NCBI GenBank assembly: GCA_964532925.1
Contig: CAZHIP010000002.1
Span: 21,127 to 85,126, forward strand
DNA length: 64,000 nt
Origin: an uncultured Gammaproteobacteria bacterium
Lineage (GTDB): Bacteria; Patescibacteriota; Patescibacteriia; GWA2-47-26
Direction: 5' to 3'
Numbering within the stretch: the stretch's first letter is position 1; each line of letters opens with the position of its first letter. This document shows positions 57,206 to 58,731 of this stretch, piece after piece. The notes beneath the pieces are model-generated. The model worked only from the letters and a program-made list of their open reading frames with translations, was not told the DNA's origin and ran no database searches. Both the position numbers and the translations under genes were made by a program.

Positions 57206-57234
57206 TTGACATTTTCGCAAAAATAGGCTAGTAT
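57206..57234 (+). promoter_or_regulatory. Promoter TTGACA-N17-TAGTAT followed by a ~150-nt leader before the GC-rich gene set
   Basis: Consensus hexamers. Confidence 0.4.
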
Positions 57235-57383
57235 CTGGGCATCAATGGGAAGTCGTGCCAACTTCTTGTTTTACGAAAGATTACGAAATATTCGTAGTTT
57301 CTGGTAAGGCAAATGTCTTTGTTCTTCAGAATTCACCGCGAAGTGGCAATAGTGCCAAAATTCTCGAAACCAGGAGAGCATCC

Positions 57384-57662
57384 ATGAGACAGGTAAGTAC
57401 GCGAGACTCTAACGCAACCTTCGTCAGGCTCACAGGAGTAGAGGACATGGCAAGCATCGAGAAACGCCTTCTGACGCCCGTCGTGCTTAGTGGCACCATC
57501 CGGCTGATGGGCGCCAGGGAGTTTCCCATCTCCTGCCTCATTCTCCTCGTCGACCGACTGATCCAGGCCGGCGCGAAGAAGGTCGAGTACAAATCCGCGG
57601 CAGTCCGTGGACACGGCTGGGAGCTCGCCCACGGGTCCTCCATGGGCCTCATCGGCCACTAG
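57384..57662 (+). CDS. Hypothetical 92-aa protein (GC-rich island 2)
   Basis: AGGAGAG RBS; GC3-rich codons; no confident family. Confidence 0.4.
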   Translation: MRQVSTRDSNATFVRLTGVEDMASIEKRLLTPVVLSGTIRLMGAREFPISCLILLVDRLIQAGAKKVEYKSAAVRGHGWELAHGSSMGLIGH

Positions 57663-57809
57663 CCCGCTCTTTTCCCGGAACGTGCGAATCTTCAAGATCC
57701 GCACGTTCCACCGCTTCCTTTGCATTGAACACAAAAAATGTTCAGCATAAAGGAAGCGTTGTTTATATCAACTCTCAACGTGGTTCTTTAAACCCGAAAG
57801 GAAATTGCG

Positions 57810-58043
57810 ATGAAATTTTTCGCAGTTTTAGCATTGAGCCTCGTCTTGTTCGGTGGCACGGCCTCGTGCACGAACACGTGCACGGAGTTTGTGGACTTGG
57901 TGGCTGCCCGCAAAAATGGGTCTTGCCCCTCGAAAGAATCCGTCGTGGCGATCAAAAATCGCTGCACGGGCAACAAAACAGAGCTCGAACGGCTCGCGTC
58001 GCTCTTGCAGACCTGTAAAAAGGTCCGCGAATCGAGCCTGTAG
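57810..58043 (+). CDS. Small secreted Cys-containing protein (77 aa)
   Basis: AAAGGAAA RBS; signal peptide MKFFAVLALSLVLFGGTASC; 6 Cys. Confidence 0.4.
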   Translation: MKFFAVLALSLVLFGGTASCTNTCTEFVDLVAARKNGSCPSKESVVAIKNRCTGNKTELERLASLLQTCKKVRESSL

Positions 58044-58312
58044 TGGGCGGGCGAGCGTTTGTGTTCATGTTGGCAATCATTACAGCATGCACACTCATCA
58101 TCCTTTGTGGTGTGCAGTCCTGCCGCACGGCGCTGTACCACCACACTTATGGAAGTTGCGAGCGAGCAGCAGCAGAGCTCGCCGCGCGCACGATGTGCCC
58201 GCACAAAAAACTCCTTGCATCACACAAGGAGTTTTGCGCAGAAAAAACACCTGCACAAATAAAGGCCATTGAGGCTACTTGTGCAAAACAGCGAAAGGAA
58301 AACAGCCTATGA
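58043..58312 (+). CDS. Small membrane/secreted Cys-containing protein (89 aa)
   Basis: Hydrophobic N-terminus and 7 Cys; start overlaps the previous stop. Confidence 0.35.
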   Translation: MGGRAFVFMLAIITACTLIILCGVQSCRTALYHHTYGSCERAAAELAARTMCPHKKLLASHKEFCAEKTPAQIKAIEATCAKQRKENSL

Positions 58313-58731
58313 GGAACGGATTCCGGGTTGAGACTCGCATGTTGCAGACAAAGGCCGACATGCCACCAATACCAGTTATCGTGATCATATACGGTAACCT
58401 CCTGGTGTCAATGTCTATGGATAAGCCACTTCAGACAGAAGTGCGAGCATTTGCCGAAGAAGCCGTTCGCAGCGGGACCAAACCCCACCTGGTAGTTGCA
58501 CTCCAGCTCTCTGGACGCCGCAATGGAGACATCAACGAAGAAGACGCTGTTCTCGGATACTTAATGGGAGAAATCGGAGGACTCCTCAAGCAGTATTTCG
58601 AAAAGTATTACATGCTTCGAGAGAATCGCGCTCTCCCTTGCTGGGTCTACGGGCACCACGACGTCTACATGGAAAAGACGTCGCCCATTGAGTGGCACAA
58701 CTTCGAGCTGGGGTGGGTACTCCGCCCCTAA
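58309..58731 (+). CDS. Hypothetical protein (~140 aa)
   Basis: GC-rich ORF; start uncertain (58279, 58309 or 58339). Confidence 0.4.
   Translation: MRNGFRVETRMLQTKADMPPIPVIVIIYGNLLVSMSMDKPLQTEVRAFAEEAVRSGTKPHLVVALQLSGRRNGDINEEDAVLGYLMGEIGGLLKQYFEKYYMLRENRALPCWVYGHHDVYMEKTSPIEWHNFELGWVLRP

Follow-up and report, generated by a model that had tools for sequence, protein, structure and literature searches.

A hypervariable slot for predicted small envelope proteins, probably a miniature replacement-type island, in an uncultured bacterial lineage

What kind of locus is a short, GC-high interval that holds four small open reading frames (ORFs) belonging to no known family? The question is raised by positions 57206-58731 of a 64-kb stretch of an NCBI contig from an uncultured bacterium (the whole stretch is called the window here, and its own sequence W), in which ORF1 to ORF4 lie between the genes of a DAO-type FAD oxidoreductase (DAO) and of phosphoglycerate kinase (PGK). 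A first, sequence-only reading had taken the interval for a GC-rich mini-island and suggested repeated uptake from a high-GC donor. We consider it fairly probable that the locus is, instead, a miniature hypervariable island of the replacement type for envelope proteins, long resident in its lineage and shuffled by homologous recombination. Its genes are real and lineage-restricted, two of them bear export and lipobox patterns, and the slot combines sharp hypervariable boundaries, raised synonymous divergence, mosaic alleles and cassette replacement. Evolutionary behaviour is in this way directly visible, and the role that the products would play in the cell is suggested by their sequence features.

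Relatives of W were recovered either through PGK (L072/L073, L074, L075 and L076) or through ORF1 (L077 and L078). The order DAO-slot-PGK-SIMPL is kept in L072, L074, L075, L076, L077 and L078, and a check for presence or absence across related genomes, which the sequence-only reading had proposed, found the slot in the same DAO-PGK place in every relative recovered. The six relatives share a chromosomal position, and the content of this position is divergent or non-homologous among them. Specifically, W and L077 share 95-100% identity in the flanks but only 46-90% over 57372-58700, and the borders are sharp, one where ORF1 starts and the other where ORF4 ends. Homology with L072 breaks off at 58253, within the 3' end of ORF3, and is found again from 58760; the DNA in between holds an unrelated ORF of 137 amino acids (aa). 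Homology with L078 stops at 58122 and resumes at 58781; here ORF3 is a 28-aa stub, followed by a different 124-aa ORF. In L075 the place of ORF1 is taken by a different ORF of ~113-116 aa, and an ORF3-type gene and an ORF of 135 aa are also present, L076 carries a Cys-family gene, a 96-aa ORF and a 140-aa ORF, and L074 has only ORF1 and the hairpins described below before PGK, without ORF2-4. In other words, the ORF4 slot is occupied by ORFs of 137, 124, 135 and 140 aa in L072, L078, L075 and L076, respectively, none with significant similarity to ORF4. These slot proteins show a similar alternation of hydrophobic strands and helices, and give among themselves collinear, non-significant hints of similarity (hhalign, BLASTP; best p about 0.017). 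They are either hyper-diverged homologues or unrelated genes.

The comparison with L077 also dates the alleles. In the flanks, the 3' part of DAO has 98% protein identity and a synonymous divergence (dS) of 0.13, and the 5' part of PGK 99% and 0.066. Inside the island dS rises to 0.67 in ORF1, 1.09 in ORF2 and 2.0 in ORF4, that is, 5-30 times the flank values, and the ratio of non-synonymous to synonymous divergence (dN/dS, Nei-Gojobori) is 0.32, 0.22 and 0.19, respectively. Since dS is high and dN/dS well below 1, the island alleles are much older than their host genomes, and this points to import of alleles by homologous recombination rather than to local positive selection or hypermutation. 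Moreover, allele relations are incongruent with those of the flanks: ORF1 and ORF2 of L077 are closest to L072 (85-87%), whereas the flanks of L077 are closest to W (94-98% vs 85%). The evidence for exchange by homologous recombination thus consists of sharp boundaries, a synonymous excess and incongruent allele relations, as read in four alleles.

A possible working order of the locus can be put together from these data and from the features listed in Table 1. Transcription would start at the putative promoter and its leader, pass through ORF1 and the tandem hairpin, continue into the coupled ORF2, ORF3 and ORF4, and end at the intrinsic-type terminator. The products of ORF2 and ORF3 would be exported via Sec and probably lipid-anchored at their first Cys, their other four Cys being free to form two disulfides. 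Strains would swap divergent alleles and non-homologous cassettes through homologous recombination, for which the conserved flanks and the conserved non-coding elements would be the anchors, the proteins staying under purifying selection. The exported proteins would then reside in the cell envelope, where frequency-dependent selection (phages, predators, competitors) may keep their diversity, and the protein of the ORF4 slot might be a cognate intracellular partner of the exported ones.

Table 1. Coordinates in the window of the elements of the slot and of its neighbours
Feature	Position	Strand	Description
Putative sigma-70-like promoter	57206-57234	+	TTGACA-17-TAGTAT, just past the DAO stop; 10/12 consensus matches
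ORF1	57384-57662	+	92-aa soluble alpha/beta protein, clade-restricted, conserved C-terminal tail YKSAAVRGHGWELA
Hairpin 1	57677-57709	+	Stem of 10+3 base pairs (bp); structure kept, sequence varies
Hairpin 2 and U-rich tract	57712-57769 (hairpin 57712-57758)	+	18 bp with internal loop; terminator- or attenuator-like
ORF2	57810-58043	+	77-aa precursor of a predicted ~58-aa exported, probably lipid-anchored, five-Cys helical protein
ORF3	58043-58312	+	89-aa precursor of a second, predicted exported five-Cys protein; GTG start overlaps the ORF2 stop (TAGTG)
ORF4	58309-58731	+	140-aa soluble protein, variable slot; ATGA overlap with the ORF3 stop
Intrinsic-terminator-like hairpin	58764-58801	+	12 bp, 8 of them GC, then the T-run TTTTTCATTT; closes the island, in the conserved right flank
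VKOR	54125-54751	-	Upstream flank
Small multidrug-export protein	55281-55754		Upstream flank
DAO-type FAD oxidoreductase	55738-57195		Directly upstream of the slot
PGK	58829-60028		Directly downstream of the slot
SIMPL/DUF541 protein, enolase, Nramp			Downstream, beyond PGK

The view of the products as envelope proteins derives from ORF2 and ORF3. Both have an N-terminus in which a basic residue is followed by a hydrophobic stretch, and both were compared, by a regular-expression implementation, with a PROSITE PS51257-type lipoprotein pattern (K/R in the first 7 residues, a hydrophobic stretch free of charged residues, then [LIVMFWSTAG](2)-[LIVMFYSTAGCQ]-[AGS]-C, its Cys at ~15-35). This lipobox-type pattern is matched in 4/4 ORF2 alleles, at Cys20 in W, L077 and L078 and at Cys17 in the shorter L072 protein, and in ORF3 at Cys27 in W and L072; the strict box [LVI][ASTVI][GAS]C is found at the invariant Cys of ORF2 in L078 only. 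ORF2 has five Cys in all and ORF3 seven, with five in each mature part (~58-63 aa). When eight mature sequences (of ORF2 type and ORF3 type, with the L075 gene and a fragment from the beginning of L076) are aligned, C5, R15, C20-P21 and C33 are invariant and a fifth Cys lies close to the C-terminus; because of this shared cysteine framework we regard ORF2 and ORF3 as probable paralogues. For ORF1 and ORF4, which match no family, a cytoplasmic location is predicted; export or lipoprotein signals are borne by the other two of the four products. The two small Cys-containing exported products and the two soluble ones of the sequence-only reading are recognised in the same genes, and its proposed family of small secreted effectors would correspond, as a family of small exported Cys-rich proteins, to ORF2 and ORF3. 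In addition, the gene of a disulfide-forming enzyme, VKOR, lies 2.5 kb upstream of the island; bacterial VKOR homologues have a role in disulfide formation, and its presence fits a host that oxidises exported cysteines.

The same arrangement invites another explanation, namely a bacteriocin-like or polymorphic toxin system in which ORF3 and/or ORF2 would encode a disulfide-bonded toxin and the ORF4 slot its immunity protein, the tip of the toxin being swapped jointly with the immunity gene. We regard this as unlikely. Small, Cys-rich products with Sec signals do lie directly upstream of a coupled hypervariable small gene, in L072 the 3' terminal part of ORF3 is indeed replaced along with ORF4, and strong allelic diversity with old alleles would fit balancing selection. 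However, searches of Pfam, PADLOC, PHROGs and PDB gave no similarity to bacteriocin, toxin or immunity families, and no dedicated exporter or protease is adjacent. The proteins of the ORF4 slot have no signal peptide or transmembrane segment with which to meet an exported toxin, and the swapped tail of ORF3 is only ~19 aa long. Moreover, ORF3 is truncated in two strains, and the slot gene persists in L078 beside its ORF3 stub.

If the coding part of the slot is variable, its non-coding frame is not: promoter, tandem hairpin and terminator region are conserved while the coding DNA between them varies. The consensus promoter with a long leader that the sequence-only reading had proposed was located by a consensus scan ~150 nucleotides (nt) upstream of ORF1 as a putative sigma-70-like element, and the same sequence occurs in L074 and L075 (96% identity with L075 over W 57206-57230). 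The leader contains a possible upstream ORF of 20 codons at 57245-57307 (MGSRANFLFYERLRNIRSFW), starting ~11 nt after the -10 box. Its start and stop are kept in L072 and L077, and L074 and L075 do not have this leader segment of ~90 nt; that it is coding is doubtful because its substitutions are mostly non-synonymous.

Between ORF1 and ORF2 stands a tandem hairpin, with copies at L072 440-536, L074 2293-2388, L075 7226-7320, L077 1651-1747 and L078 392-488. In hairpin 1, compensatory changes were found at 6 pairs (RNAalifold, six lineage members). Hairpin 2, on the other hand, is nearly invariant in sequence in 6/6 taxa (CGCUUCCUUUG...AAAGGAAGCG), some of which have a PGK only 74% identical, a conservation far beyond the need of a plain terminator. 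The 150-nt hairpin region has a minimum free energy of -55.2 kcal/mol, corresponding to z = -7.7 against shuffled controls, and between W and L077 the hairpins are 97% identical, against 46-76% in the neighbouring ORFs. A covariance model built on the six copies located the element at this locus only, in 1.4 Mb comprising the window and PGK neighbourhoods of other bacteria. In Rfam scans of the window only tRNAs reach the gathering score, and the best hit in 57150-58850 is at chance level (a miRNA model on hairpin 2, E 0.12). The tandem hairpin could serve as a terminator or attenuator between ORF1 and ORF2-4, as a protein-binding site, as a recombination anchor, or as several of these. On the right, homology with L072, L075 and L078 resumes at 58760-58781, where the terminator-like hairpin stands. 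A bolder version of the favoured reading would make of the slot a dedicated cassette-exchange site, whose hairpin, promoter and terminator are the anchors for swapping a new family of lipoprotein toxins or receptors together with an intracellular partner. This is no more than a tentative suggestion, to which we give little credence; if true, such exchange would occur only in one deep-branching uncultured lineage, the PGK of which shares no more than 49% identity with other known sequences.

Was the island, then, brought in from outside? In composition the interval does look like a horizontally acquired genomic island (GC 52.3% vs 46.8%, with raised GC at third codon positions, GC3). The figure originally given, 58-60% GC over 1.5 kb in a ~48% context, nevertheless put the GC of the interval too high. 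The interval holds 52.3% GC, or 53.6% counted from 57350, and the window overall 46.75%; among all 1526-nt segments of the window this is z = 1.85, equalled or exceeded by ~4% of them, and ORF1 is the sole gene of the four at ~61% (the top 300-nt segment, 57350-57649, has 59.3%). The deviation is clearest at third codon positions. Against a background of 0.449 +/- 0.052 in 49 long ORFs of the window, GC3 is 0.774 in ORF1 (z 6.2), 0.718 in ORF2 (z 5.1), 0.533 in ORF3 (z 1.6) and 0.617 in ORF4 (z 3.2), and the non-coding parts are without GC excess (leader 0.41, ORF1-ORF2 spacer 0.45). Across the relatives, slot genes have a GC3 of 0.51-0.80, mostly 0.6-0.8, as compared with 0.41-0.49 in DAO and PGK. 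Unrelated cassettes are also GC3-high, as in the 137-aa ORF of L072 (0.68), the 124-aa ORF of L078 (0.67) and the 140-aa ORF of L076 (0.80). The GC excess is an old third-codon-position trait of any occupant of the slot and not the trace of a recent import. Both GC-biased gene conversion (gBGC) at a recombination hot spot and a separate pool of cassettes within the lineage would be compatible with it. Recombination and gene GC content are reported to be positively related in bacteria (PMC4450053).

Nearly all other segments of equally high GC belong to island 1 (about 800-2850), where the deviation is stronger and with which a parallel had been drawn. Island 1 consists of two adjacent lipoprotein-type genes, at 1824-3125 and 3284-4042, of which the first has 64% GC, a GC3 of 0.72 and a Cys-rich N-terminal region. 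Their products, 252-433 aa long, carry D-G-G/D-A-G (D-A-G-V) repeats and lipoprotein-type signals, and no similarity of these proteins to ORF2 or ORF3, or to Pfam families, was detected. As judged from the sequences, the parallel extends to composition and to topology and export signals, and not to a shared protein family.

Taken together, the GC excess, especially at GC3, the orphan status of the genes and the similar GC3 excess of island 1 are what could be said for a recent uptake of foreign DNA from a high-GC donor, as one in a series of such events. Recent import is contradicted by synteny and by the GC3 pattern shared in the slot, and we hold it very unlikely. The ORF1, ORF2-type and ORF3-type families occupy the same position in relatives whose PGK identity falls to 69-74%, the slot being syntenic down to 69%, and all alleles, as well as the unrelated cassettes, show the GC3 excess. 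Patchy presence and signatures of mobility at the borders, expected of an acquired island, are not seen, the locus being present in all relatives. The neighbours of the slot are housekeeping genes of the chromosome. There is no tRNA within 5 kb of the island (the nearest are at 47.5 kb and 63.5 kb), no integrase turned up in a scan of about 30 ORFs of the window, made up of flanking genes and the larger ORFs, and no direct repeat was noted at the borders, no search aimed at such repeats having been made. Finally, no other genome searched, high-GC or not, contains a homologue.

If the alleles were not imported from a foreign donor, they might have diverged on the spot, through positive selection or targeted hypermutation and not through recombination. 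The sharp local drop in identity between near-identical strains and the presumed exposure of the proteins would agree with such accelerated evolution in situ, which is nonetheless highly improbable: it is the synonymous divergence that rises 5-30 fold, with dN/dS of only 0.19-0.32, allele relations conflict with those of the flanks, whole genes are exchanged for unrelated ones, and the 57000-59000 neighbourhood contains no reverse transcriptase or template repeat.

All of the above presupposes that the ORFs are genes. As judged from substitution patterns, all four are. Between W and L072, differences at codon positions 1/2/3 number 17/15/35 in ORF1, 22/11/32 in ORF2 and 20/13/32 in ORF3, and this third-position bias, together with dN/dS < 1 in the + frames, indicates that the four ORFs encode proteins. 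ORF1 is 75% identical in L072 and L078, 71% in L077 and 38-43% in L074; its last 24 codons specify an identical protein in W and L072, with 6 nucleotide changes, all synonymous. For ORF2, the mature part shows identities of 64-81% with its counterparts in L072, L077 and L078. ORF3, which the automatic gene caller missed, shares 70% identity with L072 over 70 aa, and 34-39% with the 90-aa gene of L075 (E 2.8e-11 and 1.7e-7). ORF4 has the L077 allele as its sole homologue, with 55% aa identity, and is found as an exact copy in four independent sequencing runs; its AlphaFold2 (AF2) single-sequence model has a predicted local distance difference test score (pLDDT) of 54 and is uninformative, fold matches to it being meaningless. 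The start of ORF3 in the window is uncertain because in L077 a 4-nt deletion just after the GTG start (~2019-2040, corresponding to window 58043-58060) shifts the frame. Alternative starts are available at 58061 or 58067 instead of 58043, and L078 has an ATG at the position equivalent to 58043. The L077 ORF3 would use an internal GTG or ATG start, or is a defective gene, or reflects a contig error. A structured RNA in place of ORF1 was also considered and rejected on the third-position bias, the synonymous changes at the C-terminus and the lack of an Rfam or ARAGORN match.

That the ORFs are non-conserved, non-coding noise or structured RNA in a GC-rich spacer, or that the mosaic stems from chimeric metagenome assemblies, is hardly credible, for although ORF3 escaped the gene caller, GC-rich DNA gives long ORFs in several frames and the relatives are short Logan contigs, the substitution patterns contradict it (codon-position bias and dN/dS < 1 in the + frames, with no Rfam family match), the arrangements recur exactly in 2-4 independent runs, and the island alleles of L077 match no other recovered allele exactly and therefore are no simple join of two known strains.

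The homology searches proposed at the outset returned lineage-restricted orphans of no known family. Pfam, NCBIfam-style, PADLOC and PHROG scans assigned no family to the four ORFs or to any variant cassette, and a PDB sequence search with the ORF1 and Cys-family profiles gave no match. Among ~5.8 billion clustered proteins, ORF4 found only itself, a concatenated ORF1-3 profile only clade members, and ORF1 no homologue outside the clade; an ORF1 profile run against 1.84 billion representatives retrieved clade members and spurious, repeat-driven matches in long repetitive proteins. Viral contigs scanned with ORF1 and ORF4 were negative, the Cys-family alignment being too variable to scan with, and when all variants were compared by tblastn with the 64-kb window and with the 19-kb contig of L075, neither the gene families nor hairpin 2 appeared in a second copy. 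As far as these searches reach, all four proteins are restricted to one uncultured, deep-branching lineage, seen only in Logan assemblies and in one NCBI contig (the window and five close relatives). The relatives span 69-99% PGK identity, with PGKs inside the clade at 88, 79, 74 and 69%, and outside the clade the best PGK match among the 5.8 billion proteins has 49% identity. In GTDB species genomes and in a metagenome-contig collection, PGK scans gave relatives at no more than 47% identity, and the lineage is therefore absent from both of these collections.

The surroundings of the slot show further peculiarities. Between the VKOR and small multidrug-export genes, a 133-aa ORF (54759-55160) without a Pfam family is 42% identical to a counterpart in L074 (394-717), and is another clade-restricted gene. 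The DAO-type oxidoreductase of L074 (809-1876) has 355 aa, compared with 452-485 aa elsewhere, apparently through an internal deletion of ~60-130 residues relative to the window protein. Glycolytic genes are duplicated: the window carries two paralogues of cofactor-independent phosphoglycerate mutase (14323-15891 and 49158-50663), the segment 60852-62129 being counted with these genes, and in L075 two enolase genes (340-1623 and 10262-11422) flank the PGK region. Not adjacent to the island are a 766-aa ELWxxDGT-repeat protein at 31887-34187 (TIGR04534, E 6e-139) and, near it, an ABC exporter of the bacteriocin/type I secretion class at 35281-37089.

Some points weigh against a resident replacement-type island. 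Comparison of the proteins of the ORF4 slot gave no significant homology. Lipidation and secretion are predicted from pattern matches, and the 90-aa homologue in L075 is without a lipobox. The pairwise paralogy of ORF2 and ORF3 is weak, default BLASTP finding nothing and E = 0.002 being obtained only without composition correction. Concerning the GC excess, the non-coding DNA of the island is not GC-rich (0.41-0.45), which is a mild argument against simple gBGC. Classical replacement islands are, moreover, 10-100 kb long and made of glycosyltransferase and O-antigen genes, as opposed to ~1.3 kb and four small genes here. Finally, the relatives are short Logan contigs, that of L077 from one run, which makes strain chimerism possible. 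Assembly chimerism is unlikely because of reproducibility across runs (the W arrangement is exact in 4 runs and the NCBI contig, the L072 type occurs in 2 runs and the L075 type in 3) and because of the unique L077 alleles.

On balance, the label of a GC-rich island, and by implication of horizontal transfer, gives way to that of a core-genome slot in which old, divergent alleles of small envelope proteins would circulate. The locus defines three or four new protein families (the five-Cys exported proteins, ORF1 and the ORF4-slot proteins), which, together with a lineage-specific tandem hairpin of invariant sequence, are targets for expression studies. The anomaly is explained by a familiar type of process at work on gene families that are new and confined to the lineage, and at present the practical weight of the finding is modest. 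Should the pattern prove general, GC3-rich mini-islands in metagenome-assembled genomes might serve as markers of recombination hot spots and of genes for surface interactions in uncultured lineages.

Four known systems offer themselves for comparison. Sec-dependent bacteriocin/immunity and polymorphic toxin cassettes also have an exported Cys gene followed by a variable coupled gene, and in one strain of the present set the downstream gene was replaced jointly with the 3' end of the upstream one. The locus differs from them in lacking a sequence or fold match and genes for processing or export, in the predicted cytoplasmic location of the downstream protein and in the truncation of the upstream gene in some strains. 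Lpp and the entericidins EcnA/EcnB, compared here from general knowledge, resemble the predicted ORF2 and ORF3 products as tandem paralogues of ~58 aa when mature, helical and with a lipobox Cys. Unlike them, the proteins of the slot have four extra conserved Cys and a CP motif and do not have the C-terminal Lys of Lpp, and Pfam and NCBIfam-type searches gave no sequence similarity. Integron cassettes with attC sites share the plan of promoter-proximal variable ORFs parted by a conserved imperfect hairpin. In contrast with integrons, inspection found no attC core sites (RYYYAAC/GTTRRRY) beside the hairpins, there is one hairpin element per locus, the exchange breakpoints fall inside coding sequence, and the scan of about 30 ORFs revealed no integrase.

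The closest resemblance is to the replacement flexible genomic islands of aquatic prokaryotes, which usually encode exposed structures and for which exchange by homologous recombination under phage-driven selection has been proposed (Lopez-Perez, Martin-Cuadrado & Rodriguez-Valera 2014, PMC4033161). For those islands the exchange is attributed to recombination between clonal frames, and their products are surface-exposed, surface exposure being predicted only in the present case, and the anchors here, unlike theirs, include conserved RNA-type non-coding elements inside the island. What the two have in common is a fixed locus with differing content, conserved flanks, sharp boundaries and an excess of divergence that is mostly synonymous.

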